A stretch of 64,000 bases of DNA from an uncultured Eubacteriales bacterium (GTDB lineage Bacteria; Bacillota; Clostridia; Oscillospirales; CAG-272): the NCBI GenBank assembly GCA_934432675.1, contig CAKRYT010000004.1, forward strand, positions 19,570-83,569. The letters are read 5' to 3'. The position numbers and the translations under genes were made by a program. Below are positions 4,820-26,621 of the stretch, in pieces. Position 1 is the stretch's first letter. The number at the start of each line of letters is the position of its first letter. The notes under the pieces were generated by a model. It was not told the DNA's origin and did no database searches. It worked only from the letters and a program-made list of their open reading frames with translations.

Positions 4820-4828
4820 TGCATATGA

Positions 4829-7387: not shown

Positions 7388-7416
7388 TTCACAAATTTGT
7401 TGTTTTATGATATTAT
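7388..7416 (+). promoter_or_regulatory. Sigma-A type promoter of the plus-strand surface/transport operon
   Basis: TTCACA (7388-7393), 17-nt spacer, TATTAT (7411-7416), with TGa extended -10, in an AT-rich island 59 nt upstream of the ATG at 7475. Confidence 0.6.
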
Positions 7417-7425
7417 ATATAGCAT

Positions 7426-7443
7426 AAACGCGCTTGCGCGTTT
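7426..7443. promoter_or_regulatory. Palindrome/hairpin in the 5' leader of the operon
   Basis: AAACGCGC-TT-GCGCGTTT has perfect 8-bp arms, lies 10 nt after the -10 box, and is followed by GAACATATTTT. Confidence 0.4.
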
Positions 7444-7474
7444 GAACATATTTTCTCGAAGGAACCCACGTTAC

Positions 7475-8593
7475 ATGAAAGTTAAAATCGCTTTTGTTGC
7501 AATTTTGCTTTGTCTTCTGTTGCCATGTCTCATCGCATGCGGCAACAACAAAGATGTCTATGCGAAAAACGCGGAAAAAGGCTTTACCTCCCGCGTGACC
7601 TACGACTTCGGAGACGGGCTTCTGGACGGGAAGAGCACGCTGATCTGGCTTACCTCCCCCACCGCTCCCCTGCCGGAGCCGGGTGTGACCGTGGCGTCAC
7701 CGTCCATCGCCACTCCCATCCTCGCGGGGCACCACGTCGAGGGCTACTACGTCAAGAACGCCGACGGCAGTGAGCGTGACTGGGACTTTGCCACCGACCG
7801 CGCCGAGGGAGACGTCACGCTGTATGCGAGATGGCGACCCGATTACGCCGTGCGCGTCCTGTACGGCGATGACTTCGGGCAGTCCTATTCCATCCCGGTC
7901 ACGGCAGGCGACGAGTACTCGACGCTGCGCTCTACCGAATGGACCGGTCATACCTTCTACGGTTTCTATGAGGATGCCGCGTGCAGCATCCCCCTGACCT
8001 TCCCCTACACGCCGGCAGTCAGTGCGGAGAACCCGACCGTCACCGTCTATGCCCGCTACATTGAGGGCACCTACACCGTGATCCGCCAAGCCTCCGATTT
8101 CTCGAAGGCGATCAAGACCGGTACCAACTACTACATCGACGCCGACATCGACCTGACCGGTATTGCGATCGACATCAAGGAATTCTACTCCGGCCGCTTT
8201 ATCGGGAACGGGCATACCGTCAAAGGCTTACAGGTGGTCCGCAAGCAGGGGAAGAGCACGGAAAACTACGGTCTGTTCGGAACCGTCACCGGCTCGGCGG
8301 TGTTTGAGAACATCACGTTTGAGGATGTCAAAGTCACCGTCCACCTGAACAACGAAAGCAACCCCAACACCGAAAACAGTTGCATCGGCGTGCTCGCCGG
8401 TTCCGTCGACGAGGGTGCCACCTTCACCAACGTGAAGATCACCGGCTCCCTGACCTACTACTGCTACGATCGCGGTCTGACACTGCCGGGCGTCGGCGAC
8501 ATCTTCGGATACTGCGCTCCGAGCGTCAATACCGACACGATCGAGGCGACCGTCACCGTGACGCAGGTCACGGGTGCCCCCGCCGCCAAATAA
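7475..8593 (+). CDS. Lipoprotein with Listeria-Bacteroides (Flg_new) repeats and a GLUG-motif domain
   Basis: Signal plus lipobox MKVKIAFVAILLCLLLPCLIAC|GNN. Two repeats end in ...GHHVEGYYVKNADG...DVTLYARW and ...GHTFYGFYEDAAC...TVTVYARY. The GLUG-like segment is GRFIGNGHTVKGLQV...NYGLFGTVTGS...IGVLAGSV. The start was trimmed from 7397 to the ATG at 7475. Confidence 0.8.
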   Translation: MKVKIAFVAILLCLLLPCLIACGNNKDVYAKNAEKGFTSRVTYDFGDGLLDGKSTLIWLTSPTAPLPEPGVTVASPSIATPILAGHHVEGYYVKNADGSERDWDFATDRAEGDVTLYARWRPDYAVRVLYGDDFGQSYSIPVTAGDEYSTLRSTEWTGHTFYGFYEDAACSIPLTFPYTPAVSAENPTVTVYARYIEGTYTVIRQASDFSKAIKTGTNYYIDADIDLTGIAIDIKEFYSGRFIGNGHTVKGLQVVRKQGKSTENYGLFGTVTGSAVFENITFEDVKVTVHLNNESNPNTENSCIGVLAGSVDEGATFTNVKITGSLTYYCYDRGLTLPGVGDIFGYCAPSVNTDTIEATVTVTQVTGAPAAK

Positions 8594-8634
8594 CCCATTT
8601 TTCCACGACTCATTATTTAAGGAGATATAATTAA

Positions 8635-11184
8635 ATGAAGAAAACGCTCATAAGAGTCTTGTGCGCGACCTTGTGTGTCTGCGCTCTCCTGCCGCTGGTG
8701 ACCGCCTGCGGCTGCAACAACAAGAAGAACAATTATTCCAACGAGGAAACCCCGCTCGTTCTCGCGAGCGAGGCACTTGACGGCGTGTTCAACCCGTTCT
8801 TCTACACCAGCGGTGCCGACGGCTCCGTCGTCGCCCTCACCCAGATCGGGATGCTGAACACCGATGAAAACGGTAAACTCGCCTGCGGCTGGGATCGTGA
8901 CTGCGTCACCCTCGCCTATACCGTCGTGACCCACGGCTCCAAAGAGCAGTACGACATCTCGCAGGACTATAACGACTACTACACCGAGTACTCCTTCGCC
9001 ATCAAGAACGGCATCAAGTTCTCGAACGGCGAGACCCTCTCCGGCAAGGACGTGCTCTTCAACCTGTATACCCTCCTCGACCCGAGTTACACCGGCTCTT
9101 CCACCCTGTACTCCGTCAACATCAAGGGCCTGAAAGCCTACCGTGCACAGACCTACAACGAAAACGAGCAGGATCAGCTGGATGCGAAATTCGCCGCAGA
9201 GGCTGCCGCCCGCATCAACGACGTGTTGGCATGGTGCCGCGACGAGCACGCCCCGAAAGACGCGATGACCCAGCAGCAGAAAGAAGTCATCGAAAAAGCA
9301 AAGACCTTCTTCCGTGAAGAACTCGTTTCCGAGTGGGCATCTGCCGACTCCTCCAAGGAATCCTACGAAAAATACGGCTTCACCGAGACCTGGCAGGTCT
9401 TCCTCTATCTGGAAGGCTTTATCACGGTCAAGTCCGAGAAGATCAAAAACGCCGAAGGCAAATTCGACACCAAGTACACGGTGGATTACAACGATACCGA
9501 CAAGTACCAGGACAAGTCCAAGGAAGCCCTCATCGACAGAGTGTACAACTCCTTCACCAGTGAAACGGCTCCCCTCTCCTCCTACAAGGACAACTTCCGC
9601 AAGATTATCGGCGGCGGTACGGCGACGGCGTCCAACCTGCGCGAGTACTACAAGTCCGTTTGCATTTCCGAATATTTCAAGCAGTACGACCGGCTCCAAG
9701 TACCGAATATTTCCGGTATCACGCTGACCCGCGGCAACACTCTCCCGACGAACGATACCGGTGCTACCCAGGCACTCGGTGAGGAGTGCGAGATCCTGAA
9801 AATCATCGTCAACGGCGTTGACCCGAAGGCAATCTACAACTTCTCCTTCACCGTAACGCCTATGAGCTACTACTCTACCGAAGAAGAGATCAACAAATAC
9901 TCCTACGAGAACAACCACTTCGGTGTTGCTTTCGCAGACAGCGATTTCTTTGAACAGATGCAGATCAAACAGGTCCCCGTCGGCGCAGGTCCCTACAAGG
10001 CGACGACCGCCAACACCGACTGCGAAGCAGAGGGGTCCATCCCGAAGAAAAACGACTTCTTCCGTGACAACGTCGTTTACTACGAAAGAAACAATAATTT
10101 CTACACGGTGTTCGGTAACGATACGAGCAAGAATGCCAAGATCAGGAAGGTTCGTTACAAGGTTATTTCCACCGACCAGATGTACAACGCCGTCACCGGC
10201 GCAAACCCGGAGGTCTACTACTCCGAGCCGCAGGCGACCCCGGACAACATGAAGAAACTCGCCGACGCCAAGGGTATCGGTGTGGAACTCGCCGATAACC
10301 TCGGCTACGGTTATATCGGTATCAACGCCAAGTACGTGAAGGAGATCGAGGTACGCCGCGCCATCATGTACTGCCTGGATACCAGCCTGTGCGTGGAATA
10401 CTACGGCTCCTACGCCTCCGCGATCTACCGCTCCATGTCCTCCAACTCCTGGGCATACCCGGCAGGGTGCATGCCCTACTACGCCGAAAAGTCGTACGAC
10501 AACTGCAAGTGCGACGCCGAGGGGAACGTCATCAGTATCGGCAAATTCAACGCAGAGAAAGCACAGCAGTCCGCCCTTGCCGAAGTACAGGCGGCCGGCT
10601 ACTCCATCGGTAAAGACGGTAAACTTGTCAATGCAAAGAATGAGAAACTGACCTTCACCTTCACGATCGCCGGTGACTCGACCGACCACCCGGCGTGGAG
10701 AACGATGGATAAGGCAGCCAAACTGCTGAACGAGATCGGCTTTGACGTCACCGTGACCAAGGACGCGAACGCCCTCTCCAAACTCTCCTCCGGTACGCTT
10801 GCCGTCTGGGCGGCCGCCTGGTCCTCCACCATCGACCCGGATATGTACCAGGTCTACCACAAGGATTCCTCCGCGACCTCCATCCGCAACTGGGGCTTCC
10901 CCTACATCATGGAGGAGGGGACGGAAGAGGAGAATGACCTGCTCGACCGCCTCGCGGAGCTCATCGAGGACGGCCGCGCGACGATCGTCGAAAAGGACCG
11001 CAAAGGCATCTACTCCGACGCGCTTGATACCGTTATGGAACTCGCCGTCGAGTGCCCGACCTACCAGAGAAAGAATCTCTATATCTGGAACAGCACGGTC
11101 ATCGATTCCTCCACGCTCTGCAAGGCGACTGCCTACCAGTCTCCCTTCTCCCGCATCTGGGAAATCAGTTTCGTCCAGGGCTGA
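8635..11184 (+). CDS. ABC transporter substrate-binding lipoprotein, peptide/nickel (family 5) type, unusually long at 849 aa
   Basis: Lipobox LLPLVTAC|GCNN. Family-5 SBP-like segments: IKNGIKFSNGETLSGKDVLFNL, YKVISTDQMYNAVTGA, GYGYIGINAKY, and AAAWSSTIDPDMYQVYH. RBS AAGGAG upstream. It is followed by cognate permeases and ATPases. Confidence 0.88.
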   Translation: MKKTLIRVLCATLCVCALLPLVTACGCNNKKNNYSNEETPLVLASEALDGVFNPFFYTSGADGSVVALTQIGMLNTDENGKLACGWDRDCVTLAYTVVTHGSKEQYDISQDYNDYYTEYSFAIKNGIKFSNGETLSGKDVLFNLYTLLDPSYTGSSTLYSVNIKGLKAYRAQTYNENEQDQLDAKFAAEAAARINDVLAWCRDEHAPKDAMTQQQKEVIEKAKTFFREELVSEWASADSSKESYEKYGFTETWQVFLYLEGFITVKSEKIKNAEGKFDTKYTVDYNDTDKYQDKSKEALIDRVYNSFTSETAPLSSYKDNFRKIIGGGTATASNLREYYKSVCISEYFKQYDRLQVPNISGITLTRGNTLPTNDTGATQALGEECEILKIIVNGVDPKAIYNFSFTVTPMSYYSTEEEINKYSYENNHFGVAFADSDFFEQMQIKQVPVGAGPYKATTANTDCEAEGSIPKKNDFFRDNVVYYERNNNFYTVFGNDTSKNAKIRKVRYKVISTDQMYNAVTGANPEVYYSEPQATPDNMKKLADAKGIGVELADNLGYGYIGINAKYVKEIEVRRAIMYCLDTSLCVEYYGSYASAIYRSMSSNSWAYPAGCMPYYAEKSYDNCKCDAEGNVISIGKFNAEKAQQSALAEVQAAGYSIGKDGKLVNAKNEKLTFTFTIAGDSTDHPAWRTMDKAAKLLNEIGFDVTVTKDANALSKLSSGTLAVWAAAWSSTIDPDMYQVYHKDSSATSIRNWGFPYIMEEGTEEENDLLDRLAELIEDGRATIVEKDRKGIYSDALDTVMELAVECPTYQRKNLYIWNSTVIDSSTLCKATAYQSPFSRIWEISFVQG

Positions 11185-11362
11185 TACGCAGAGAGAGAGA
11201 TCTTACAACACGATTTTATCCATGATCTGACCTCTTTGTACAGGGCGCAACGGCATGCAGCGGGGTAACTCTCTGCCGCTTGCCAATGCGCTTTGTGCTT
11301 TGTCATCCCATCGGCGGTCTCACGGCATTTTCCACCTACCCAACAAGAAAGGTCCGGCTAGT

Positions 11363-12355
11363 ATGACTAAATACATCATCAAACGCCTGCTTTATTCCAT
11401 ACTGATTCTCTTTTGCGTGTCACTCATCATTTACTTCCTCGTCCGCTTGCTCCCGACCAACTTCGTCACGCAGAAGTTCCGTTCCCAGCTCGACCAGGGG
11501 ACGGTCAGTCAGGAAGACATTGACGCAATGCTGAAACTCTATGGTCTTTACGACGACTCCTTCACGGGGATCCTCAAAGGCTACTGGGGCTGGCTGACGA
11601 GCGCGATCAGGGGTGACCTGGGAATATCTTTCAAATTCAACGACAAGGTATCCACCGTCATCACCACCTATATGTGGATTTCGTTCACGATTTCCGCCGT
11701 GGCACTCGTCCTCGAATTCATCATTGCGATCCCGCTCGGCATCTATTCCGCGACGCACCAGTACGGATGGTCCGACTACCTCGTCACCGTGCTCGCGATG
11801 ATCGGTATATCGCTCCCGTCGTTCTTCCTCGGGTCCCTGCTCATCAAGATATTCGGCGTAGACCTCGGATGGTTGCCGATGCAGGGGCTTGTGGACGCGA
11901 CCGCCGACTATACCGGTTTTGCCGCCGTCCTCGATAAGGCAAGGCACTGCATACTGCCGATGCTGACGCTCGTCATCCTCTCGATCGGCGGGCTCATGCG
12001 TTACACGCGCACCAACACCCTTGAAGTGCTGAATGCGGACTATATCCGCACCGCACGAGCCAAGGGGCTCTCGGAGCACGACGTGGTGTACAAGCACGTG
12101 TTCCGCAACACCATGATCCCGCTCGTCACCATGATGGCAGGGACGCTGCCGAGCCTGTTCTCCGGTGCCATGATCACCGAGGAAATCTTCTCCTTACAGG
12201 GGATCGGGCAGAAGGCGTACCAGGCACTCTGTGCCGGTGACATCCCGTTCATCATGGGCTACAATATGTTCCTCGCCATTCTGACCGTCATCGGCACGTT
12301 CCTGACGGATATTGCCTATATGCTCGTTGACCCGCGTGTCAAACTCTTGAAGTAA
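11363..12355 (+). CDS. ABC transporter permease (OppB/DppB-like)
   Basis: MTKYIIKRLLYSILILFCVSLIIYFLVRLLP... N-terminus, plus the EAA-loop region YIRTARAKGLSEHDVVYKHVFRNTMIPLVT. The start was trimmed from 11255 to 11363. Confidence 0.9.
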   Translation: MTKYIIKRLLYSILILFCVSLIIYFLVRLLPTNFVTQKFRSQLDQGTVSQEDIDAMLKLYGLYDDSFTGILKGYWGWLTSAIRGDLGISFKFNDKVSTVITTYMWISFTISAVALVLEFIIAIPLGIYSATHQYGWSDYLVTVLAMIGISLPSFFLGSLLIKIFGVDLGWLPMQGLVDATADYTGFAAVLDKARHCILPMLTLVILSIGGLMRYTRTNTLEVLNADYIRTARAKGLSEHDVVYKHVFRNTMIPLVTMMAGTLPSLFSGAMITEEIFSLQGIGQKAYQALCAGDIPFIMGYNMFLAILTVIGTFLTDIAYMLVDPRVKLLK

Positions 12356-12369
12356 GGAGGAGAATCGTC

Positions 12370-13656
12370 ATGAAAAAACGCGAACTGGAAACCAGAACAG
12401 ACGTTCCCTCTCCGGAAGAGACCGCGGAGTTGACCGGCACGGTCCCCGGGGCCGAGACCCTGCCCGACGCAGATCACCTCACCCCGGAGGCAGAACGCCT
12501 CGCCCCCGAGGGGGACGGGGCCGCACCCGTAGCGGAAACCGTCCTGCCCGCGGAGAACGTTGCCGCAGAGGATACCACGGACAACGCCTACGCGGAAGAA
12601 AATGAGAGTTTCGCCGACAACGTGCGGATCATCTCCCCGATGCGACTGGTGCTCCAACGGTTTTTCCGCTCCCGCCTCTCCATGGTCGGTCTTGTGACCA
12701 TGGTCCTGCTCCTGCTCTTCTGCTTTGTGGGGCCCCTCTTCATCGGCTGGGGTGAGCAGGAAGTCGATTCCAACGCCGGCAGTGAGGAGATTATCCCCAT
12801 GACCGTGACCTACACGGGTCCCGACGGCAAACAGTATGAAGCGGTGCGTGTGGATATCCACACCTACAAAGAAAACAAGTTTGCCCCCTGTTTCAACGTC
12901 TCCGTCAATGAAAACGGCAAGAAAGCCGTCCACATTCTGGGCACGGATGACCAGGGTTACGACGTACTCGTCCGTCTGATGTACGGTGGCAGAATCTCCC
13001 TTTCCCTCTCCCTGCTCGTCGTGTTCGTGAACACCCTGATCGGTGTCGTCCTCGGCGGCCTCGCCGGTTTCTTCGGCAAATGGGTCGATATGCTTATCAT
13101 GCGTATCGTGGATATCATCAACTGTATCCCGACCCTGCCGATCCTGCTGATCATCAGCGCGATTCTCTCCGCGTACAACACCAAGGGGCCGGAGGCGCAG
13201 GCAATCTACATCGACAAATCCTTCAATATTTATATTCTGATGGGCGTCCTGACGCTCATCTCGTGGACGGGTGCCGCCCGGCTCGTGCGCGGTCAGATCC
13301 TCTCACTGCGTGAGCAGGAGTACATGACGGCGTGTGAAGCCCTCGGCGTGCCGAACAGCAGACGGATTTTCAAGCATCTGGTCCCGAACATCATGCCGCA
13401 GCTCATCGTTTCGATGACGCTCTCCCTCGGCAGTATGATTCTGTACGAGGCAACGCTGGGGTACCTCGACCTCGGCGTGCCGTACCCGAAGGCCTCTTGG
13501 GGGAATATTATCTTCCTCGCCAAGAAGCCGAATATCCTCAGTAATTTCCCGAACATCTGGATCCCCGCCGGCATTTGCATCGTGCTCGCCGTCCTCGCCT
13601 TCAACTTCATCGGCGACGGTCTGCGTGACGCGCTCGACCCGAGAATGAAACGATAA
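12370..13656 (+). CDS. ABC transporter permease (OppC/DppC-like) with a roughly 90-aa acidic/Pro-rich N-terminal extension
   Basis: OppC-type N-domain (...HILGTDDQGYDVLVRLMYGG), the EAA loop EYMTACEALGVPNSRRIFKHLVPNIMPQLIV, and the C-terminus FNFIGDGLRDALDPR. RBS AGGAGGAG upstream. Confidence 0.9.
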   Translation: MKKRELETRTDVPSPEETAELTGTVPGAETLPDADHLTPEAERLAPEGDGAAPVAETVLPAENVAAEDTTDNAYAEENESFADNVRIISPMRLVLQRFFRSRLSMVGLVTMVLLLLFCFVGPLFIGWGEQEVDSNAGSEEIIPMTVTYTGPDGKQYEAVRVDIHTYKENKFAPCFNVSVNENGKKAVHILGTDDQGYDVLVRLMYGGRISLSLSLLVVFVNTLIGVVLGGLAGFFGKWVDMLIMRIVDIINCIPTLPILLIISAILSAYNTKGPEAQAIYIDKSFNIYILMGVLTLISWTGAARLVRGQILSLREQEYMTACEALGVPNSRRIFKHLVPNIMPQLIVSMTLSLGSMILYEATLGYLDLGVPYPKASWGNIIFLAKKPNILSNFPNIWIPAGICIVLAVLAFNFIGDGLRDALDPRMKR

Positions 13657-13674: not shown

Positions 13675-14982
13675 ATGGCAGAAAAGCATTATTTATCCGC
13701 AACAGAGCTCCGGAAGATCTCCCGCGAGAACATGAAGATCACCGCGGCTTACGAAAAGAAGAAAAAGCAGAAGGTCGATCCCGCCACCTACGAAACGGAG
13801 ATGCGGGACCCGAACAACGTCCTCGAAATCGAGGATCTGCATACTTTCTTCTTCACGGACGCCGGTGTTGTCAAATCGGTCAACGGCGTTTCCTTTGAGA
13901 TTCCGCAGGGCAAGATCGTCGGCGTCGTCGGCGAGTCCGGCTGCGGCAAGAGCGTCACTTCCCTCTCCGTCATGCAGCTGGTGCAGGCACCGCAGGGACA
14001 GATCGTGGACGGCAGCATCCGCTTCCGCACGTCGGAACTCTGCCTCGGCGAGAACCATAAACCGATCCCCGTCTGGGAACTTGACGAAAACGGCGAGCCC
14101 CTGACCGAGGAGATCACCGATAAGCACGGCAAGACCGTCACCGTCAAGGTGCAGAAAAAGGACAAGGACGGTTTCCCCGTCTTTCTGCGGCAGGACAAAG
14201 TGGTCGATATCGCCAAGATGCCGACCGCCGATATGCGTAAAATCCGCGGCAGAGAGATCTCGATGATTTTCCAGGAGCCGATGACGAGTCTGAACCCCGT
14301 GTTCACGATCGGTTATCAGCTCGACGAGGTGATTCTTGTCAACACGCCGGGCGTCACACGCAAGGACGCAAAAGCCAGGAGCATCGAAATGCTCGGTCAG
14401 GTCGGCATCGCCGCCCCCGAGGCGGTGTACGCCAAGTATCCGCACGAACTCTCCGGCGGTATGCGGCAGCGGGTGATGATCGCGATGGCAATCGCCTGCA
14501 ACCCGAAACTCATCATTGCCGACGAGCCGACGACCGCCCTCGACGTGACCATTCAGGCACAGATCCTCGATCTTCTGAAAGAACTGAAAGACCGTATCAA
14601 CGGCTCTATCATGCTCATCACCCACGACCTCGGCGTCATCGCCGGTATGGCGGACTACGTGGTCATCATGTACGCCGGTCGGATTATCGAAAAGGGCACC
14701 GTCTACGACATTTTCGATGACCCCAGGCACCCTTACACCATTGGTCTGCAAAAGTCCAAGCCCGTTGTCAACCGGGATACGGACTGGCTCTATTGCATCC
14801 CCGGCCGGGTGCCGAACCCGGTCGACCTGCCCGACACCTGCTACTTCAAGGATCGTTGCCGCAACTGCACGGCGGTGTGCAACGGTCCGTACCCGCCCCT
14901 GATGAAGATCTCGGACACCCACTACGTGGCGTGCTACCGCGCCGCCGAAATGCCCGGTTTGGAGGAGAACAATGGAAAATAA
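13675..14982 (+). CDS. ABC transporter ATP-binding protein (OppD-like) with an N-terminal extension and an internal insert
   Basis: Walker [10 protein letters not shown]-loop MIFQEP, signature LSGGMRQRV, Walker [14 protein letters not shown]-loop ITHDL, and the oligopeptide C-terminal Cys motif. About 55-60 extra residues lie between Walker A and the Q-loop (about 14038-14209). Confidence 0.92.
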
Positions 14983-16033
14983 CGAGAATATCCTCCTGCA
15001 AGTGGAGCACCTCAAAAAATACTTTGTCGCAGGCAAAGACTTTTTCGGCAAGCCCGTTTCGTTTCTGAAAGCGGTCGATGACGTCTCCTTCTCCATGCCG
15101 CGCGCATCCACCTTGGGCATCGTCGGTGAGTCGGGCTGTGGTAAGACCACGCTCGGCAGAACGATCCTCCACCTGCACGACATCACGGGCGGTCAGATCA
15201 TCTACGACGGCGAGGACATCACGCATTATTCGCGCAGGCAACTCATGCCTCTGCGCCGTAAGATGCAGATCGTCTTCCAGGACCCCTATTCCAGCCTCCC
15301 GCCGCGTATGACGGTCGGCGAGATCATCTCCGAGCCGGTCATGATCCACAAGATCGTGCCGAAAGACGAGATCAACGAATACGTCCTCGATATTATGAAG
15401 AAGTGCGGCCTCCGCGACTTCTACTATGACCGTTACCCGCACGAGTTTTCGGGTGGTCAGCGGCAGAGGATCTGCATTGCGCGTGCGCTTGCCGTAAAGC
15501 CCGAATTCGTGGTGTGTGACGAGCCCGTCTCTGCCCTGGACGTTTCCATTCAGGCACAGATCGTCAATTTGCTGAAAGAATTGCAGATGGAAATGGGGCT
15601 GACGTACCTCTTCATCTCCCACGACCTCTCGGTCGTCAAGCACATTTCCACCCACGTCGGCGTTATGTACCTCGGCTCGCTCGTCGAGATCGGGACCAAA
15701 AAGCAGATCTTCGATACGCCCTCCCACCCCTACACACAGGCTCTTCTGTCCGCCGCACCGGTGCCGGATCCCCACGTCAAGGTGGACCGCATCGTTCTCG
15801 ACGGCGATATTCCCTCTCCGATCAACTGCCCGCCCGGCTGTAAATTCCATACGCGCTGCTCGAAGTGCATGGATATCTGCCGTGAGAAGCGTCCTGCCCT
15901 GACCGATCTCGGTGACGGGCACAAGGTCGCCTGCTTCCTCTGCGGCTCCGAGCCGGAGGAGGACCCACTCGGAGAGCCCGAGACGGTCACCGCCCCCGAA
16001 GCGGAGCCCGTCGGTGAAACGGTGCAAGCATGA
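14972..16033 (+). CDS. ABC transporter ATP-binding protein (OppF-like)
   Basis: Walker A GESGCGKTT, FQDPYSSL, FSGGQRQRI, Walker B FVVCDEPVSALD, SHDL, and C-terminal CPPGCKFHTRC. It overlaps the upstream gene by 11 nt. Confidence 0.93.
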   Translation: MENNENILLQVEHLKKYFVAGKDFFGKPVSFLKAVDDVSFSMPRASTLGIVGESGCGKTTLGRTILHLHDITGGQIIYDGEDITHYSRRQLMPLRRKMQIVFQDPYSSLPPRMTVGEIISEPVMIHKIVPKDEINEYVLDIMKKCGLRDFYYDRYPHEFSGGQRQRICIARALAVKPEFVVCDEPVSALDVSIQAQIVNLLKELQMEMGLTYLFISHDLSVVKHISTHVGVMYLGSLVEIGTKKQIFDTPSHPYTQALLSAAPVPDPHVKVDRIVLDGDIPSPINCPPGCKFHTRCSKCMDICREKRPALTDLGDGHKVACFLCGSEPEEDPLGEPETVTAPEAEPVGETVQA

Positions 16034-19300: not shown

Positions 19301-22300
19301 GCTCGACTGGGAGGGTGAACAGAACAACCTCCGTCGGGACTTCTCCTTCTCCTTCTATATTGACGACGAAGCACCCGTGGTGGATATGGATCAGACCGCT
19401 CTCCGCGTGGAAAGAGACGCAGAGGGCAATATCGAGAGATACCTGCTCGACCTCTACGTCTACGATAACCGTTTCCTCTCCGGCTACTTTATGTCCACCT
19501 TTGCGGAAAAGGATGCGAACGGTGTCGCCATCGATCCCGAGGCGGTCATCGAGGGCTTTATCCCCGTCGACGATATGGTCGCCGGTACCTCCAACAAGGT
19601 GACGATCGACCTCACCTCCGTATGGCACAAACTGAAAGACGGTGCCACCCCCGGCTCCAAGAACATTGAGTTCACGCTCTACGACTACGCGAAGAACAAA
19701 ACGGTCGTGGATCTGACGCTCGAAAAGTCCGTAGTCGATACCGTGAATATCAAGAACGGCAGAAAGTCGACCGAAAAGGGCGATGAGATCGTCTTCAACC
19801 TGAAACCCTACCAGCAGATCAACCTGCTTGCCACCAAGTATCTCGTGACGGCCCCCAAAGAGGCGTATTACAGCGACTTCCTCTGGTCGTCCTCCGACGA
19901 TGCCGTCGCCACCGTGCAGGACGGCGTCGTCACCACCCTCAAAAACGGTGAAGCGGTCATCACGGTTGCCACCCGGGACGGCAGGAGTGCCGCCCAGGTC
20001 ACGATCAAATGTACCGGGACGGCGAGCAATACGGATATTCCCATCTCCGGGCTTACGCTGAATTCCACACGTATTTCGCTCGTGCGCGGTGAGTCCTATG
20101 AACTCTACGCGACCTACGCACCCTATAACGCCACCACCCTGCCCACGCTCGTGTGGGATGCCTACAATTCTCCCTACGTCACGCTGACACCCGATCCGGA
20201 AAATCCGTATCACTGCACCGTGTTTGCCAAGCAGTCGGGCTCTGCCATCGTCACGGCAAAAGCGCAGGGGACACTGTTCTCCGCCACTTGCAGTTTCGGC
20301 ATTGCGGAAGAATTCGAGTATCTCGGCCAGTATCTGAAATCCTACACCGGCCGCGGTGACGCCGACGGTGTGGTGGAGATCCCCGCCGACAAGGGCGTGA
20401 CGCGCATCTACCGCCTCGCATTCTACAACAATAAAGACATCCGTAAGGTCATCATCCCCGAAGGGGTGGAAGAGATCGAATACGGTGCCTTCTACGGGTG
20501 CGAAAACCTGGAAGAGATCGTCCTGCCCTCTACCTGTAAGCAGCTCGACGAGTGGTCCTTCGGTTATTGCGAATCACTGAAAACGATCAATCTCGGCAAC
20601 GTACAGACCATCTGCCAGCTTGCCTTCTACAGCGATAAAGCCCTGGAAGCACTGGACCTCTCCAACTGCCATACCATCTGTGACCGTGCCTTCTCGTTCT
20701 GCACCTCGCTGCAATCGGTGGATATCAGCACGGTCGGTCAGATCGGCAGATTCTGCTTCGTGGGATGCACGGGGCTGGAAGAACTCAAAACCTCGGACAA
20801 GAACAAGATTGCCGACTACGCCTTCGCGATGTGTTCTTCCCTGCGTTCGCTGACCCTCTATGCCGCCTATGTCGGTGAAAACGCTTTCTACTACTGCTCG
20901 GGTCTGACCGACGTGGTGTTCGCGTCCGATGTGGCAGAAATCGACGATGCCGGTTTCTACTATTGCAGTGCACTGACCAACGTCTCCTTCAAGGGGACCT
21001 GCCGTTACATCGGTGCCTACGCCTTCACCAACTGCTCGGCACTTACCTCCGTGTACGTCCCCGCAGGGTGTGAATACATCGGCGACTTTGCCTTCGCGGG
21101 TTGCCGCGCCGTCAGTGCCGTGACGTTCAGTGCGGACGCCAACATCCGCTCCGTCGGGCGCAACCCGTTCTACCTCGTCTTTGTGGAAAACTTCGTGGTG
21201 GAGGACGGCAGCAAGTACATGACCGCCCGGGACGGGATCCTCTATGACAAGAACATGACCCGTCTCATCCTCTCCCCGTTTGCCAGATCCATCGTCGGGC
21301 TCTCGCTCCCGGACAGTGTCCGGACCATCGGCGATTATGCCCTCTCCTACGTCTACTCTATCCTATCTGTCAACCTGAACGGGGTGACCGAGATCGGTGA
21401 GGGTGCTTTCATGGGCTCGGGCGTGCAGACCGTCTACCCGGGTACCGCACTCACCACCATCGGCGATTACGCCTTTGCTTCCTGCGATCGTCTGGAACTC
21501 GGCGGCATCCCTGCGGGCGTGACCTCCATCGGCGAGTATGCCTTTGCGCAGAGCTCCCTCTCCGGCAGGCTTGAGCTCCCCGCGAGCCTGACCTCGCTCG
21601 GTGCATACGCCTTCGCCCAGAACGAGGGTATCACCTCCGTGACCGTTCCGGCAGGCGTTGCAACGATCGGTGAGGGTGCCTTCGCAGAGTGCACCGCGCT
21701 GACTTCCGTGACCCTCGCAGAGGGGGTCGGTACGATCGGTGACTTTGCCTTTATCGGCGATGCGGCACTGACGAGCGTGACCCTGCCCGCCTCCCTCGGG
21801 GCGATCGGCAAGGGTGCCTTCGCCGCATGCAAGGGGCTGCGTACCGTCGCTCTGCCCGCAGGACTCACCGAAATTGCGGACTATACCTTCTACAATGCAA
21901 CCTCCCTGGATGCCCTGACGCTACCCGAGGCCGTCACATCAATCGGCGACTTTGCCTTCTTCGGCGACGAAAAACTGACAGGTCTGGACTTCGCATCCGT
22001 GACCTCCGTCGGCAACTACGCCTTTATGGGCACCGCCCTCACCACACTGGATGCGGATGCCGTCGAAACGGTAGGTAACTACGCCTTTGCGCGGACCCAT
22101 CTCACCTCCGTCCGTCTCCCCGCCGCGACCGACATCGGTGCCTACGCCTTTGCCGAGGCCAAAGAACTGACCTCCCTGTCGCTGGACCGTGCGGTGCATA
22201 TCGGCGAGGGTGCCTTTGCCCGCGCCACGGGGCTCACCGCCGTCTCGCTCCCCGCTTGCGAAACGATCGGCGACCTTGCCTTCGCCTATGCGGGTTCCCT

Positions 22301-23420
22301 CACCTCGCTGGACGTCCCGGCACTGCAAACCATCGGCTCCTACGCCATCTACAACACGCGGATTTCGTCCGTTTCCCTGCCCGCCAGCCTGACCTACGTG
22401 GCACCGAACGCCCTCACCACGAAGGCGTACAACTCCACCGACGACAGCCTCGTCCGCCTCACCGAAATCAAGCTGGACAGTGCGAACGCGACCTTCTTCC
22501 TGGATGACGCCGGGGTGCTCTATCAAAGACTCACCGAGAATTCGTATCTGCTCGTCGCCTACCCCTCCGGTAAGACCGACAAGACCTATACGATTCTGGA
22601 TAAGACCGTCCGCATCGAGGCGTATGCGTTTGCCAACAACCCCTATCTTGAAGACGTGACCGTTGCCCGTACCGTGAAATCGATCGGTGACGGTGCCTTC
22701 TACGGCAACACCTCGCTGCACACGCTCCGTTTCCTGTCCGTGACGGCACCCACACTGGAAAGCCATTACTCCGGTGCGGCGGTGAACGGCTGGTCGTACA
22801 AGAACTTCGTGTACGACTTCGCGGACACCGACAAAGCCCCGCACCTGACCGTCTCGGTCCCGAAGAATGCAGCAGGTTACGACTCCTTCCTCTGGACAGC
22901 GTATATCGGCAACGCGGAGCACACGGACGTCATCTCCATGACCGACGGTACCGCCGCCCTGAATGAAAGCATCAATCGTCTCCCCGCGACCGTTACGCTC
23001 GCGGATGCGGAGACGGTGGACCGCCTCGAACGGATGTATAACGCTACCTCCGCCGATCAGAGAGTCTTCATCGAGAATTACGCCAAACTGCAAAACGCCA
23101 TCGCCACCGTACAGCGTCTCCGCGCCGAGCAGGGCGGTGACACGCCGGAGCCCCCGACGCCGGATACCCCGACGGAGCCGGCGAAGACGGACGGTATGCC
23201 TGTTTATGCCATCGTCCTCATCGTCGTGGGTGCCGTCGTGGTGCTCGCGGGTGTCGGTCTCGCCGTGTGGTTCTTCGTCGTGAAGAAACGCAAAGGCGCG
23301 GATGCCGCGGGGTCGGAACAAACGGCCGCCTCCGACGACTCCGACGACTCCGACGCTCCCGATCATTCCGATGCCGCGTCCACCGAAGAAACGAAAGGAG
23401 AGGACAACGATGAAAAATAA
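16377..23420 (+). CDS. Cell-envelope subtilisin-like (S8) serine protease with PA insert, Big_2 domains, BspA-type LRR array and C-terminal TM anchor (2,347 aa)
   Basis: Signal peptide MKNRFTHFLCVCLVMVMALQLMILPTFAA.
Catalytic triad motifs: VVAVLDTGLD (Asp codon 17013), HGTHVAG (His codon 17226), GTSMACP (Ser codon 18180).
PA-like insert GKIAIIKRGVTTFEEKVQIAAAKGAVGAIIYNN.
Two Ig-like Big_2-type segments at about 19.84-20.29 kb.
LRR units of the IP.gV..Ig..AF..C..L type at about 20.38-22.74 kb.
C-terminal Pro/Thr linker, TM helix YAIVLIVVGAVVVLAGVGLAVWFFVV and KKRK stop-transfer. No LPXTG. Confidence 0.9.
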   Translation: MKNRFTHFLCVCLVMVMALQLMILPTFAAMLSDEDFLNAFPALKDLVADRLTASGLNANKYEQSLSGKDLGVYEPTDRVNAVIKLPGESILSLATSVGMSAADYVRSSEGQAKIAEMTAAQNEAIRRLGDSISDVKHRYTTLFSGFSCTTEYQNLAKIEGLFVGSTAIIGEKYISDKQDSTATDNALNAYGTGIYNSSNAGYTGKGMVVAVLDTGLDYTHTAFQRLPEGTLKLTKDDIEELFPYLAAASLNTSGRWNETYYSDKVVYMYDYADKDTDVYPVNDHGTHVAGIISGKDDKITGVAIDSQLAIFKVFGNKDAGAETEDILAALSDAVLLGVDVINMSLGSSCGFSRAADEEGVNEVYDAVRAAGINLIVAASNSHSSAKGSNAGDTNLTTNPDSMTLGSPATYDSSLAVASVLGAKTHYLFANGKYPVYLTKAVKGGKDIEFYNMLLDGRSSAQFDYVLVPGVGNESSYTDIDVTGKIAIIKRGVTTFEEKVQIAAAKGAVGAIIYNNVSGTISMSITTATLPTCSISMDAGAYFVANPTGTLHFGAGNLAGPFMSDFSSWGPNADLVLNPDVTSYGGDITSAVRGGYDVFSGTSMACPNLAGSAALVRQYVKAKYPTYTDSEVTALVNCLLMSTASILRNEANNPYSPRKQGSGLADAERAIKTGAYLYVEGSDKAKLSLGDDPQKTGKYTLTFRLKNITGNTLSYNLKTYTMTETVSTDEKTVAEQAYMLSPTIRYSVEGGRLTGETVTVLGYTEATITAEITLSDADRTYIESHFANGMYVEGFCTLTNNEGDADLTIPYLAFFGDWTKAPILDVTAFEEGKEAKDSSILEDEKLKADVYATIPMVGFYSGNEISYYFMCKPAFILAKGYEAPATLEEYCALTTSKDGNFMIKYISAGLLRNAKRVHMTIVDPVTGNVIFEKTAENCRKSYYNGNQTGGYVEVDFDASAAGLANNTKYVFNMSCELDWEGEQNNLRRDFSFSFYIDDEAPVVDMDQTALRVERDAEGNIERYLLDLYVYDNRFLSGYFMSTFAEKDANGVAIDPEAVIEGFIPVDDMVAGTSNKVTIDLTSVWHKLKDGATPGSKNIEFTLYDYAKNKTVVDLTLEKSVVDTVNIKNGRKSTEKGDEIVFNLKPYQQINLLATKYLVTAPKEAYYSDFLWSSSDDAVATVQDGVVTTLKNGEAVITVATRDGRSAAQVTIKCTGTASNTDIPISGLTLNSTRISLVRGESYELYATYAPYNATTLPTLVWDAYNSPYVTLTPDPENPYHCTVFAKQSGSAIVTAKAQGTLFSATCSFGIAEEFEYLGQYLKSYTGRGDADGVVEIPADKGVTRIYRLAFYNNKDIRKVIIPEGVEEIEYGAFYGCENLEEIVLPSTCKQLDEWSFGYCESLKTINLGNVQTICQLAFYSDKALEALDLSNCHTICDRAFSFCTSLQSVDISTVGQIGRFCFVGCTGLEELKTSDKNKIADYAFAMCSSLRSLTLYAAYVGENAFYYCSGLTDVVFASDVAEIDDAGFYYCSALTNVSFKGTCRYIGAYAFTNCSALTSVYVPAGCEYIGDFAFAGCRAVSAVTFSADANIRSVGRNPFYLVFVENFVVEDGSKYMTARDGILYDKNMTRLILSPFARSIVGLSLPDSVRTIGDYALSYVYSILSVNLNGVTEIGEGAFMGSGVQTVYPGTALTTIGDYAFASCDRLELGGIPAGVTSIGEYAFAQSSLSGRLELPASLTSLGAYAFAQNEGITSVTVPAGVATIGEGAFAECTALTSVTLAEGVGTIGDFAFIGDAALTSVTLPASLGAIGKGAFAACKGLRTVALPAGLTEIADYTFYNATSLDALTLPEAVTSIGDFAFFGDEKLTGLDFASVTSVGNYAFMGTALTTLDADAVETVGNYAFARTHLTSVRLPAATDIGAYAFAEAKELTSLSLDRAVHIGEGAFARATGLTAVSLPACETIGDLAFAYAGSLTSLDVPALQTIGSYAIYNTRISSVSLPASLTYVAPNALTTKAYNSTDDSLVRLTEIKLDSANATFFLDDAGVLYQRLTENSYLLVAYPSGKTDKTYTILDKTVRIEAYAFANNPYLEDVTVARTVKSIGDGAFYGNTSLHTLRFLSVTAPTLESHYSGAAVNGWSYKNFVYDFADTDKAPHLTVSVPKNAAGYDSFLWTAYIGNAEHTDVISMTDGTAALNESINRLPATVTLADAETVDRLERMYNATSADQRVFIENYAKLQNAIATVQRLRAEQGGDTPEPPTPDTPTEPAKTDGMPVYAIVLIVVGAVVVLAGVGLAVWFFVVKKRKGADAAGSEQTAASDDSDDSDAPDHSDAASTEETKGEDNDEK
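20380..22740 (+). repeat. BspA-type leucine-rich-repeat (LRR_5-like) coding array inside the S8 protease gene (approximate bounds)
   Basis: Successive units of roughly 23-25 aa, such as IPEGVEEIEYGAFYGCENLEEIVLPSTCKQLDEWSFGYCESLKTINL and VTLPASLGAIGKGAFAACKGLRTVALPAGLTEIADYTFYNATSL. Confidence 0.75.
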
Positions 23421-26400
23421 ACTTCTGCGCCTGTCCGCACTCGTGGTCCTCTGCCTCGTGCTCGGACTTTCCCTCTTTGCCTGTAAGGACAAAACCCCCG
23501 TCAACTACACCGTCACCTTTGATACCTGCGACGGCGCACCGGCAACGGTGCTCACCGTCGCGCAGGGCGGCACGCCTGCGGCACCCGCAGATCCCACCCG
23601 TTACGGCTACACCTTCACGGGTTGGTATGCCGACGCCGAGGGGACTGTGCCGGCGACGCCGGCGACCTCGCCCGTGACGGCGGATGTCACCTATTATGCC
23701 GGTTGGGCACCGCTCCGTTCCGTCCTCGTCGGGTTTGACACAGAGGGCGGCTCGGCGGTCCCCTCCGTCTCCCTCCTGCTCGGCAACACGCTGGATGAGA
23801 CGTCGATCCCCACCCCCGTCAAAGAGGGGTACATCTTCCTCGGGTGGTATAAGAATGCCGCCTGCACCGCCAAGTTCAACTTCCGCACCGCCCCGACCGA
23901 AGATATGACCCTGTACGCCGGCTGGGCTGTCAGCGGCGATATGGGTGAGTACGTCGGTGTCGTGGACGGCCGGGTGGTCGCGCGTTCGGTCTTCCCCGCA
24001 GGCGCACCTGTCCTGCCGACGACCGATGACGGTGTCTCCTACCTGTGGTTCTCCGACGTTTTTCTGACGCAGCCGTTCACCTGTGACGTTTCTGCCGGCT
24101 CCACCACGCTGTACGGCATGGCATACACCGACGGGCTCCGCATCGAGGCGGGTGTCGTCACCGGCTACACCGGAACGGAGCGTAACGTCATCGTCCCCGC
24201 AAAATGGGACGGTGTGGCCGTGACCGCCGTCGGTGCCTCCGCCTTCTCCGGCAATATGCGGGTGAAGACGGTGAAACTTCCCGCGACCATTGTGTCCGTC
24301 GGTGCCTCCGCCTTCTATGACTGTTACTCGCTTGCCACAGTGAATCTCACGTCTGCCTGCACGTCTGTCGGTGCCTATGCATTCGCCGGGTGCGGCAAGC
24401 TGGCAGACGCCGGGGACCTCTCCGGTCTTGACGAGATCTGTGAGCACACCTTTACCGGTTGCCGCCGTCTTGCAGCCGTGCAGTTCTCCGAGGGTCTGCT
24501 CGCCGTGGGCCGCTACGCGTTCTCCGACTGCGAGGCACTGTCCTCGATCCTGCTCCCCGACACCGTGACCGAGATCGGTGAGTATGCGTTCTCCGGCTGC
24601 TCCTCCGTACGCGAGTTCCGTATCCCCGCATCGCTGAACGACCTGCGTACCGGTGCGCTGAAAGGGTGCCTCTCCCTCTCGACACTGCTCCCTGCCCCGA
24701 ACAACGATACGGCTCTGTTCCGTGTCGTTGACGGCAATCTGTACAGTGCCTACGGTCGTTGCCTCTCGCTCTATCTTGCCTCCGACAAGGAGGAGACAAC
24801 CTTTACGCTCCCCTCCGGTTGTACCGAAATCGCGCCCTACGCCTTTGACGGCAACCGTAATATCGAGACGCTGGTGCTCGACGCACCGGGGCTCACCCTC
24901 CGTGAGGGGTCGCTCGCCGGTATGCGTGCCCTGACCACGCTTTCGGTCTACGCACTGCCGAGTGCCAATCCCTACCTCGCGTACTATTTCGGTGCCTCGT
25001 CGGGTGAGGCGAACGGCTCTGCCGGTAACTTCTCCCCCTCGACGCTGACGAAGGTCCGCATCGTAAACATGGGCGATGTGCTCCCCGATTACGCGTTCTA
25101 CGGTTTCACCGGGCTCTCCGAGATTGAGGGCATCGGAGACCTGCGCTCGATCGGCCGTTACGCCTTCGCCTACACCGCCCTGCGTGAGGTTTCCGTCCCT
25201 GCGACGGTGACGAAAATCGGCGAAAATGCCTACTATGGCTGTGCCGCAATCGAGTCCTTTACCGTTGCTCCCGAAAATACCGCTTATGCCGCATTTGACG
25301 GATGCCTTTACAGCAAGGATCTCTCGACCCTTTACCTGGTCCCCCAGACCAAAGAGGCGGTCACCTTTGCCGACGGCGTCAGGACCGTTGCGGCAGGTGC
25401 CTTCTACAAGTCGCAGGTGCGCAGCGTCGTTGTCCCCGCGACGGTGACGACGATCGAACAGGGTGCCTTTGCAGGTGTGCTCCGCCTGGAAGAGTTGACG
25501 GTGCCGTTTATCGGGGGGTCCGCGACAAACACCGACACCGACTACATGATGTATATTTTCGGCGGTACGGTGTCCAAGAGTGACTCCATCCAGGCAGACG
25601 GGACCTATTCCTACACCACCGGCTCCCGTTCCTGCACGCCGACCTCGCTCCGCAAACTGACCGTCTCGGGCGATATTTCCTTCCTCGGTGAATTTGCCTT
25701 TGCCTACCTCACGGAGGTGACGGAAATCCACTGGAACGGCGACATCACCTATATCGACGACTACGCTTTCTGTCAGACCGGGCTCACCGAACTGGTGATA
25801 CCGTCTACCGTGACGCGCATCGGCGACTTTGCTTTCGCCGCCATGAGTGACCTTGTGAGTGCCGTCGTCCCCGGCTCTGTCGGCGGAAACCTCGGGCTCT
25901 ACCTCTTCCGTGAATGCTCGTCACTGGAAACGGTCGTATTTGAGGAGGGCGTGACCCGAATCCCGGCATACGCGTTCTACCTCGCGGGCTCCAAGGACAG
26001 CGAAACGGGCGATACCTTCTACTACTCCAAGCTGGACAGCGTCACACTCCCCTCGACCATCCGGTCGATCGGTGAGGCGGCATTTGCCTATGCGGGTACG
26101 CGCTACATCGGTGAAGGCTCCACCTACGGCAACCTGAAATTCATTCTCCCTGCCGCGTCTGACCTTCGCGTGATCGAGAAAAACGCCTTCTACCGCGCGT
26201 CCGTAAAGTCGCTGACGCTCCCCGCCTGCTTTGAGGAAATCGGCGAGATGGCATTCTTCGGATGCCGCAACCTCGCGCACGTGACCTTCGGCACCGAGGA
26301 CGGCGGCTCCGCCCTGCGGAAATTCGGCGGTGCCTCCTTCGCGTACTGCACGGGGCTCCTCGACATCACGATCTGGAAGGATATCAAATCCCCGTCGGAC

Positions 26401-26574
26401 GTCCCGGTGATGGAATACTACACCGTGACCACGACCACCGAGAACGTGTCCTTCAACGTGTTTGCAGGTGCGTCCGTCCCCTCCATTTATGTGCGATCCG
26501 CCGCCACCTACCGTGCGGCAGAGCATTGGGACGAATACGACGCGAAGATCTACGAGATCTCCTCGACCCGTTGA
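23410..26574 (+). CDS. Lipoprotein with Flg_new repeats and a BspA-type LRR array (1,054 aa)
   Basis: ATG at 23410 follows AAAGGAGAGG and overlaps the protease gene by 11 nt. Lipobox LGLSLFAC|KDK. Repeats end in GYTFTGWYADAEG...VTYYAGW and GYIFLGWYKNAAC...MTLYAGW. The LRR array spans about 24.19-26.37 kb (for example VKLPATIVSVGASAFYDCYSLATVNL). Confidence 0.85.
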   Translation: MKNKLLRLSALVVLCLVLGLSLFACKDKTPVNYTVTFDTCDGAPATVLTVAQGGTPAAPADPTRYGYTFTGWYADAEGTVPATPATSPVTADVTYYAGWAPLRSVLVGFDTEGGSAVPSVSLLLGNTLDETSIPTPVKEGYIFLGWYKNAACTAKFNFRTAPTEDMTLYAGWAVSGDMGEYVGVVDGRVVARSVFPAGAPVLPTTDDGVSYLWFSDVFLTQPFTCDVSAGSTTLYGMAYTDGLRIEAGVVTGYTGTERNVIVPAKWDGVAVTAVGASAFSGNMRVKTVKLPATIVSVGASAFYDCYSLATVNLTSACTSVGAYAFAGCGKLADAGDLSGLDEICEHTFTGCRRLAAVQFSEGLLAVGRYAFSDCEALSSILLPDTVTEIGEYAFSGCSSVREFRIPASLNDLRTGALKGCLSLSTLLPAPNNDTALFRVVDGNLYSAYGRCLSLYLASDKEETTFTLPSGCTEIAPYAFDGNRNIETLVLDAPGLTLREGSLAGMRALTTLSVYALPSANPYLAYYFGASSGEANGSAGNFSPSTLTKVRIVNMGDVLPDYAFYGFTGLSEIEGIGDLRSIGRYAFAYTALREVSVPATVTKIGENAYYGCAAIESFTVAPENTAYAAFDGCLYSKDLSTLYLVPQTKEAVTFADGVRTVAAGAFYKSQVRSVVVPATVTTIEQGAFAGVLRLEELTVPFIGGSATNTDTDYMMYIFGGTVSKSDSIQADGTYSYTTGSRSCTPTSLRKLTVSGDISFLGEFAFAYLTEVTEIHWNGDITYIDDYAFCQTGLTELVIPSTVTRIGDFAFAAMSDLVSAVVPGSVGGNLGLYLFRECSSLETVVFEEGVTRIPAYAFYLAGSKDSETGDTFYYSKLDSVTLPSTIRSIGEAAFAYAGTRYIGEGSTYGNLKFILPAASDLRVIEKNAFYRASVKSLTLPACFEEIGEMAFFGCRNLAHVTFGTEDGGSALRKFGGASFAYCTGLLDITIWKDIKSPSDVPVMEYYTVTTTTENVSFNVFAGASVPSIYVRSAATYRAAEHWDEYDAKIYEISSTR
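24185..26370 (+). repeat. BspA-type LRR coding array (approximate bounds)
   Basis: Repeated ..P..V..IG..AF..C..L.. units read directly from the translation of 23410..26574. Confidence 0.7.
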
Positions 26575-26590
26575 CCCTGACAAAACAGAA

Positions 26591-26621
26591 AACCTCCCGA
26601 CGAAACGTCGGGAGGTTTTTT
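26591..26621 (+). terminator. Rho-independent terminator of the plus-strand operon
   Basis: Stem ACCTCCCGACG / CGTCGGGAGGT, loop AAA, then TTTTTT. It starts 17 nt after the stop at 26574. Confidence 0.85.

Follow-up and report, generated by a model that had tools for sequence, protein, structure and literature searches.

A 64,000-nucleotide stretch of the genome of an uncultured Eubacteriales bacterium (contig CAKRYT010000004.1; hereafter the window) encodes a cell-envelope protease of the S8 family next to a complete peptide importer of the Opp/Dpp type, and we consider it probable that the cluster is an operon coupling proteolysis at the cell surface to oligopeptide uptake. The cluster consists of nine intact open reading frames (ORFs), all on the + strand between positions 7475 and 26574, in the order g1, a substrate-binding protein (SBP), OppB, OppC, OppD, OppF, a small protein here called mini, the S8 protease, and g9, a lipoprotein with leucine-rich repeats (LRRs) (Table 1). 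The gene content, strand, and coordinates proposed in a first-pass annotation of the window held, and Pfam domains agreed with them.

Linkage of protease and importer genes

We scanned one genome per GTDB species with an alignment of the catalytic half of the protease and 26 homologs, and the recovered loci were sorted by tblastn and blastp with the window proteins, the counted set being those with an S8 identity of at least 34%. In this set, g1, SBP, and Opp genes lay directly beside the protease gene and on the same strand in 24 of ~27 informative loci, and ~10 further loci ran into the end of a contig. Of the S8 loci at greater distance (at most 33% identity), ~40 in all, none was linked. 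All six long contigs carried the full gene set, at SBP identities of 90, 75, 64, 46, 42, and 42% and in differing flanking contexts. A metagenome scan centered on the SBP yielded 80 loci, which formed 51 clusters at 90% SBP identity (29 informative, 22 undetermined); the protease was encoded directly downstream in 15 and directly upstream in 12, so that 27 of the 29 informative clusters were linked.

The two gene orders are cyclic permutations of one another: [g1-SBP-BCDF-mini][S8(-LRR)], as in the window, and [S8(-LRR)][g1-SBP-BCDF-mini], in which the two blocks are separated by gaps of 0–35 nt. The two orders are spread over gut metagenome-assembled genomes labeled Christensenellales, Oscillospiraceae, and Bacilli. 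Protease and SBP diverged in step (93/90, 80/75, 62/64, and 45/42% identity). The carriers were labeled Christensenellaceae/Christensenella, Borkfalkia, Faecousia/Oscillospiraceae, Pumilibacteraceae, “Clostridia,” “Bacilli,” and Anaeroplasmataceae, and they came from the gut of human, mouse, rabbit, chicken, goat, sheep, roe-deer, and giraffe. Because the protease-centered, long-contig, and metagenome surveys agree and the distant S8 loci are unlinked, the deeply conserved linkage is, judging from these genome comparisons, a selected trait of one orthologous group rather than a chance by-product of genomes with many surface-protein genes. The survey of neighborhoods that the first-pass annotation had called for thus strongly backs its central claim, the union of a cell-envelope S8 protease with a complete Opp-type importer in one unit: in gut lineages that are distant from one another, the two blocks lie side by side on the same strand with little space between them, whichever block comes first. 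The recurrence of this pairing in dozens of uncultured animal-gut bacteria suggests a dedicated protein-foraging module.

Encoded proteins

Domains were assigned with the model cut-offs of Pfam and NCBIfam, and lipoboxes and anchors by simple sequence checks. The protease comprises a signal peptide, an I9-like propeptide region, an S8 domain at amino acids (aa) 204–662 (Peptidase_S8, 142.5 bits by Pfam) with a PA insert at 472–540, and an fn3_5 domain at 698–811; PA inside the S8 domain with fn3_5 after it is the domain order of cell-envelope proteinases (CEPs). The distal part contains Big_2, eight stretches of BspA-type LRR_5, a Pro/Thr linker, a transmembrane (TM) anchor at 2271–2289, and an acidic tail. 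The catalytic motifs VLDTG (D213), HGTH (H284), SNS (oxyanion N380), and GTSMA (S602) are intact, and the four residues are invariant or nearly so across 27 homologs; the protein is predicted to be an active endoprotease. Its closest solved structures are the C5a peptidases ScpA/ScpB, SpyCEP, and other CEPs (E values of 4e-66 to 1e-55 over residues ~200–857), and the SGO_0316-family model of NCBIfam scored 261 bits against a cut-off of 1400. The I9-like region is conserved in the protease family, with a Pfam I9 match in one homolog (P0003).

No LPXTG-like motif was found in the protease, whose anchoring signals are the C-terminal TM helix, a KKRK stop-transfer sequence, and the acidic tail; by these signals it is bound to the envelope through an anchor other than LPXTG. 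Neither the cluster nor those of its relatives contained a gene for a PrtM-type maturase, a peptidyl-prolyl isomerase, or a PrsA-like protein. Proteases from linked loci measured ~2230–2550 aa and those of two unlinked relatives ~1600–1700 aa. At one unlinked locus (L083, 10001–25053), two S8-PA paralogs flank an LRR_5 protein, one of them with a weak Dockerin_1 match, and some members of the protease family may be displayed differently.

The importer has the architecture of Opp/Dpp transporters (PepT, TC 3.A.1.5), with a family-5 (cluster C) SBP, two BPD_transp_1 permeases, one of which carries OppC_N, and two oligo_HPY ATPases. A profile search was needed to place the SBP because a single-sequence search of the PDB came back almost empty (best E value 5e-4, none below 1e-4). 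The profile, built from 37 homologs, matched Bacillus subtilis AppA at E = 1.2e-18 and nickel binders at 5e-7 or worse, a lead for AppA of 11 orders of magnitude over the best of them. Foldseek confirmed the family-5 fold in an AlphaFold2 model of the SBP (mean predicted local distance difference test, pLDDT, 88.7), the top match being AppA with its nonapeptide (E = 3e-21; template modeling score 0.82 over AppA). The prospect that the SBP is nickel-specific, which the first-pass annotation had named as a threat to its reading, is weakened now that AppA is nearest by both profile and fold, though nickel binders lie close by fold.

Because of a conserved insertion of ~260 aa (approximately residues 172–433), SBP homologs are uniformly 810–900 aa long; the insertion is partly helical, contains the invariant residues W200, E229, W234, and Y244, and matched no Pfam family. 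Among NCBIfam models, the nearest to OppB was Opp4B (256.7 bits; cut-off 450) and the nearest to OppC was Opp4C (320.5; cut-off 350). Opp4A scored 63.7 on the SBP (cut-off 650), and OppD reached 334.7 (cut-off 575), with all OppD/DppD models below their cut-offs. The sole cut-off passed was that of NF008453, a subfamily model for dipeptide ATP-binding cassette (ABC) transporter ATP-binding proteins, by OppF (414 versus 408 bits). The OppB start at 11363 is backed by 330-aa gene calls in relatives; an upstream ATG at 11255 sits within a hairpin and was rejected as the start of this 330-aa protein. In OppD, an insertion of ~70–80 aa separates Walker A from the Q-loop region and the rest of the nucleotide-binding domain, and both this insertion and the OppC extension are retained in relatives (OppD of 431–463 aa in the six relatives L086–L091). 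Cys-rich C-terminal motifs resembling Fe-S-binding OppD/F tails were noticed in both ATPases.

Two further genes accompany the importer. The model of g1 (pLDDT 87.2) shows two InlB-B-repeat/Flg_new beta-grasp domains, to which Foldseek matches were confined, followed by a C-terminal beta domain that had no PDB match at E < 1e-3. The profile searches proposed in the first-pass annotation recovered Peptidase_S8, PA, and SBP_bac_5 and failed for Glug: its GLUG label for g1 fell below the cut-off (PF07581, E = 0.56, 11.2 bits versus 20.5) and drew little from the family, in which 1 of 18 members matched Glug (E = 0.086). Peptidase_M26_N matched 4 of the 18 (best E = 3e-4), so that the family weakly resembles IgA1-specific M26 metalloproteases in their N-terminal region. 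The motifs GLFG and G.LAG are conserved in the family, and “GLUG-like” is a possible description of it. Full-length g1-like proteins (350–500 aa) form hundreds of clusters at 50% identity, and in nearly all related loci the g1 gene lies directly 5′ of the SBP gene; no g1 homolog was detected at that position in the lineage of L152 and L155–L161.

The “Lys-rich mini membrane protein” of the first-pass annotation does have a Lys-rich N-terminal part, with DDGRVIVDMNVEGMPWY, and one C-terminal TM helix, and the description can now be amended to that of a conserved family. Its members, of 75–121 aa, share DDGR.I..MNV[ED]GMPWY, a basic linker, PT.KE.RAMI.AAY.A.LP, and the C-terminal TM helix, match no Pfam or NCBIfam family, and follow OppF in relatives, mostly with a start that overlaps the oppF stop. 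Mini may be a new accessory subunit of the ABC importer. In one lineage with the protease upstream, an ORF of ~1160–1390 aa with 24–26% identity to g1 follows oppF (L105, L108, and L112, ~17750–21900; L106, ~15014; L109, ~7745), and no mini was detected in that lineage. An equivalent of g9 lies 3′ of the protease in L089–L091, L098, L004, and L018 and is absent or replaced in many other relatives; on this distribution g9 is treated as a frequent but facultative member.

Layout and transcription signals

The OppD and OppF ORFs share 11 nt (14972/14982), oppF and mini overlap by ATGA at 16030–16033, and the protease stop and g9 start share 11 nt (23410/23420), all three junctions having been quoted correctly in the first-pass annotation. 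Its statement that no terminator lies in the 65 nt between mini and the protease gene also stood, as we found only a weak hairpin without a T-run there (−12.5 kcal/mol, z = −0.24). It had further described a single promoter and a single terminator. Both ends were upheld, the promoter-like site by conservation in the relatives L086 and L087 and the strong terminator by its T6 hairpin; for the terminator, “single” needs qualifying, as the annotation had missed that 178 nt separate the stop of the SBP gene (11184) from the start of OppB (11363) and contain a strong stem-loop.

Promoter-like matches in the region numbered 8, and shuffling gave 7.4 ± 3.3; with the count at chance level, the scan by itself is no proof of a promoter. 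The site at 7388–7416 draws its weight from the −35 and extended −10 motifs that stand at the equivalent position in L086 and L087. Other promoter- and terminator-like matches on the + strand fell within genes, were weak, and occurred at chance frequency, and they were discarded. The stem-loop at 7425–7444 is retained in both of these relatives despite a different sequence, and we infer a 5′ stabilizer or leader element, possibly one that stabilizes the mRNA. An A/T inverted repeat, ATTTTTT-N11-AAAAAAT, lies 5′ of the −35 at ~7351–7375; it is kept in L086, while a palindrome related to it, AATTTTCTG...CAGAAAAATT, occurs in L087. The repeat is a possible operator. Upstream, the cluster is bounded by a + strand terminator at 7179–7209 that ends a flavodoxin/small-ORF unit, and the gene on its 3′ side (26765–31906) is convergent.

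A strong hairpin follows the SBP gene in 6 of 6 relatives (L086–L091), where its sequences are unrelated and one has a T-run. A hairpin after a binding-protein gene is the classical arrangement by which more binding protein than membrane components is made. The stem-loop at 11240–11296 is probably a partial terminator or an mRNA stabilizer that modulates the transcript, and the SBP would probably be made in excess owing to it. Apart from this hairpin, the signal scan and the folding of gaps gave no convincing terminator within the cluster. No Rfam family was found in the region at E ≤ 1 or in the whole window at gathering thresholds, and no riboswitch or T-box leader was seen. Spacing, overlaps, and signal scans, as read from sequence alone, are compatible with a single transcription unit, and the cluster is probably one operon with an internal attenuating or stabilizing hairpin.

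Table 1. Genes and signals of the protease–importer cluster, in window coordinates, with the positions of mini homologs in relatives
Feature	Coordinates	Strand	Description
Promoter-like site	7388–7416	+	TTCACA, 17 nt, TG-extended TATTAT; sigma-70-type; 10/12, top scan match
Stem-loop in 5′ untranslated region	7425–7444	+	TAAACGCGC-TT-GCGCGTTTG; near predicted transcript start; flagged by scan
g1	7475–8593	+	372 aa; lipobox LIAC; Flg_new 23.5 bits (below cut-off of 27)
SBP	8635–11184	+	849 aa; lipobox VTAC; SBP_bac_5 92.5 bits, match split in two stretches
Stem-loop in SBP–OppB gap	11240–11296	+	Followed by GCTTTGTCAT; minimum free energy of gap −61 kcal/mol, z = −2.4
OppB	11363–12355	+	330 aa; BPD_transp_1 122.8 bits
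OppC	12370–13656	+	428 aa; OppC_N and BPD_transp_1; ~85-aa acidic Pro-rich N-terminal extension
OppD	13675–14982	+	435 aa; ABC_tran match in two stretches; oligo_HPY
OppF	14972–16033	+	353 aa; ABC_tran and oligo_HPY
mini	16030–16311	+	93 aa; tail-anchored; one C-terminal TM helix
S8 protease	16377–23420	+	2347 aa; S8-PA-fn3_5-Big_2-LRR_5 and C-terminal membrane anchor
g9 (LRR lipoprotein)	23410–26574	+	1054 aa; lipobox LFAC; Flg_new x2; seven stretches of LRR_5
Intrinsic terminator	26589–26625	+	Stem ~10–14 bp (core CCTCCCGACG / CGTCGGGAGG), loop AAA, T6
mini homologs	L086 17371–17652; L087 17301–17567; L088 17239–17502; L089 17093–17335; L090 17281–17646; L091 17138–17365		

Readings of the cluster and its surroundings

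If the cluster works as we propose, the protease would be exported by Sec, held on the cell by its C-terminal TM helix, and probably self-activated by shedding the I9-like propeptide. The Big_2 and BspA-type LRR modules, together with the co-translated LRR lipoprotein where present, would keep the enzyme at protein substrates or extend towards them, and the CEP-type S8/PA/fn3 catalytic head would cleave these substrates to oligopeptides. The lipid-anchored, AppA/OppA-like SBP would capture these peptides and hand them to OppBC, with OppDF supplying power, to a presumably nutritional end. The genes g1 and mini would encode conserved accessory subunits of this transporter subtype; our guess is that g1 is an extracellular scaffold or gate beside the SBP and mini a cytoplasmic-face partner of the modified OppD/F. 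The capture role that the first-pass annotation gave to the LRR and GLUG parts is conjecture, and the presence of LRR and Flg_new modules here is unspecific because the window encodes many other proteins of the BspA-type LRR and Flg_new kinds. A bolder version, rather doubtful, is that the cluster defines a distinct and widespread “protein utilization operon” of uncultured gut Bacillota whose products form one physical surface machine, in which the tethered protease, its LRR partner, g1, and the enlarged SBP channel long peptides directly from bound substrate into a modified Opp translocator whose OppD insert and OppC extension are served by mini. In that case the importer would represent a new subtype of Opp, with two additional subunits that are obligatory, and the system a Gram-positive protein counterpart of the Sus-like polysaccharide utilization loci (PULs).

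Several findings weigh against the coupling of surface proteolysis to oligopeptide uptake. Foldseek ranks 2–5 for the SBP are NikZ and NikA, and the near-empty single-sequence search marks the SBP as very divergent. In OppA and DppA, an Asp three residues past a conserved Trp anchors the amino group of the peptide, and the AAWSSTIDPD motif of the SBP lacks it. Peptides are thus no more than a putative ligand, because the SBP is divergent, nickel binders are close by fold, and the canonical Asp is missing. The linkage is also imperfect, as three or four informative S8 loci lack a transporter (L041, L083, L084, and probably L026), so that some related S8-LRR proteases do without one, and two SBP lineages (L100; L102/L104) have unrelated neighbors in place of an adjacent protease, with no substitute peptidase beside the SBP. 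No intracellular peptidase gene or dedicated regulator is conserved in the cluster, in the window or in the long contigs, and no CodY box (AATTTTCWGAAAATT, at most three mismatches) was found in the window. C5a peptidase and SpyCEP, to which the protease is related in streptococci, are enzymes of immune evasion and not of nutrition, and co-transcription over ~19 kb is a prediction from the DNA.

The streptococcal kinship prompts one to ask if the cluster is a host-interaction module, in which the protease, like its streptococcal relatives, mainly serves colonization or immune evasion by cutting specific host factors (immunoglobulin, chemokine, complement, mucin, or matrix protein), the LRR modules are adhesins, and the importer merely salvages the products or takes up unrelated peptides. 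The nearest solved relatives of the protease, the BspA-type LRR and InlB-B-repeat modules typical of host-binding surface proteins, the weak resemblance of the g1 family to the N-terminal region of IgA1-specific metalloproteases, and the animal-gut origin of all carriers are in keeping with such a role. However, the importer is linked in more than 90% of informative loci and the linkage outlasts permutation of the gene order, as selection for joint function predicts, whereas the immune-evasion proteinases of streptococci are not known to share an operon with peptide importers; LRR and Flg_new modules, moreover, are generic in these genomes. We regard a host-interaction module as unlikely. There is a small chance that the transporter handles something other than peptides, its SBP binding a metal chelate, an opine, or an oligosaccharide or glycopeptide, and that the protease acts separately, for example in the maturation of surface proteins. 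Family-5 SBPs do include binders of nickel, metallophores, glutathione, and sugars, with NikZ/NikA next in rank by fold; every NCBIfam equivalog cut-off for oligopeptide SBPs and permeases was missed, and the ~260-aa insertion has no known counterpart. Set against this are the lead of AppA over nickel binders in the profile search, permeases that score best on the Opp4 oligopeptide models, the lack of any metal-related gene in the cluster, and a conserved partner predicted to be an endopeptidase.

Opp systems import signaling peptides in several Bacillota, such as Bacillus and Enterococcus, and the cluster encodes no cytoplasmic peptidase, so one might suppose that the protease acts on a precursor that the cell secretes, or on surface proteins of the cell itself, and that the importer takes up a specific, pheromone-type peptide or recycles envelope peptides. 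However, in the long contigs of relatives neither a small precursor gene that is conserved nor a regulator, of RRNPP type or otherwise, was found in or beside the cluster, and a protease of ~2300–2500 aa with many binding modules seems out of proportion for pheromone maturation; we think a signaling or self-directed role very improbable. Hardly credible, finally, is a neighborhood without meaning, in which surface-protein genes simply cluster, as they may be thought to do given several other giant LRR/Flg_new genes in the window and a promoter scan at chance level. Flanking genes vary among relatives while the two blocks stay joined, the linkage outlasts both cyclic permutation and divergence to ~35–45% identity across orders, and the junctions overlap or are shorter than 70 nt.

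The reading that we prefer, surface proteolysis coupled to oligopeptide uptake, has its closest functional parallel in lactic acid bacteria, where PrtP-PrtM and Opp form the same chain, from an envelope S8 protease with a PA insert and Fn3-like A domain through oligopeptides and a family-5 lipoprotein SBP to OppBCDF. In those bacteria the protease and the Opp transporter are encoded at separate loci, whereas here they share one conserved cluster. The present system also differs in having no PrtM-like maturase and no CodY box, a C-terminal TM helix rather than an LPXTG or S-layer-type anchor, BspA-type LRRs in the C-terminal half where PrtP has B, H, and W domains, an SBP larger by ~300 aa, and two extra conserved genes (g1 and mini). 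The streptococcal CEPs (ScpA/ScpB, SpyCEP, and CspA) provide the best solved-structure matches and share the S8 domain with PA insert and following Fn3 domains; they are virulence factors that are anchored through LPXTG, have narrow host targets, and are not known to be linked to importers. B. subtilis App has the same five-component Opp/Dpp architecture, and its AppA (PDB 1xoc) is the nearest solved relative of the SBP by profile and fold, although at ~13% identity and without the ~260-aa SBP insertion, the OppD insert, the OppC extension, g1, or mini; we know of no protease gene in the app operon.

Peptidase genes do occur in operons for peptide transporters, as in dppA-dppBCDE of B. subtilis and opp-pepO of Lactococcus lactis, where they encode small enzymes acting on imported or short peptides. 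These are precedents for co-transcription of an importer and a peptide-cleaving enzyme, but not for giant surface endoproteases upstream of transport. In concept, the cluster resembles PULs, both the Sus-like ones of Bacteroidota and the ABC-based ones of Gram-positive bacteria, and the RagAB-gingipain system of Porphyromonas, in that surface binding, depolymerization, and import go together; the substrate class and protein families are different, with no SusC/SusD and no glycoside hydrolase here, and the likeness is one of analogy only. A literature search found no account of this cluster, of a CEP fused at the operon level to Opp, or of a “peptide/protein utilization locus,” with most subscription journals outside its scope, so that this absence is no proof of novelty.

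Fermentation of protein and peptides in the gut is credited to poorly defined taxa, and many Christensenellales, Oscillospiraceae, and RF39-like lineages are uncultured. If the cluster couples an endoprotease to an importer, it would be a genomic marker of protein-foraging capacity in metagenomes and would hint at intact proteins or long peptides as an amino-acid source for cultivation. It would also extend the concept of the utilization locus from glycans to proteins in Gram-positive bacteria, and the 850-aa SBP with its insertion, the g1 family, and the tail-anchored mini are parts to characterize.

The window has a GC content of about 58%. On the 5′ side of the cluster, positions 1–7210 encode a hexapeptide transferase, a class-V aminotransferase (NifS/IscS-like), a NifU-like protein, a short-chain dehydrogenase, an AraC-type regulator (4862–5845), a DUF3793 protein, a flavodoxin, and a 39-aa ORF. 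The AraC-type regulator is probably not dedicated to the cluster because it adjoins it only in L086, the closest relative. On the 3′ side, the − strand encodes at 43346–53095 a protein of 3249 aa in which BspA-type LRR_5 makes up 20 stretches and Flg_new three repeats; it shows how abundant such modules are in the genome, so that finding them in the protease cluster is nothing specific. Between it and the cluster, at 26765–42882 and also on the − strand, lies a string of genes for a 1713-aa Flg_new lipoprotein, a 931-aa LRR_5 protein, a VWA protein (979 aa), a BatA/VWA protein (665 aa), a DUF58 protein (299 aa), a MoxR AAA_3 ATPase (347 aa), and a protein of 395 aa without a family; by its domains, the string combines a set of the Bat/MoxR type with giant surface proteins.

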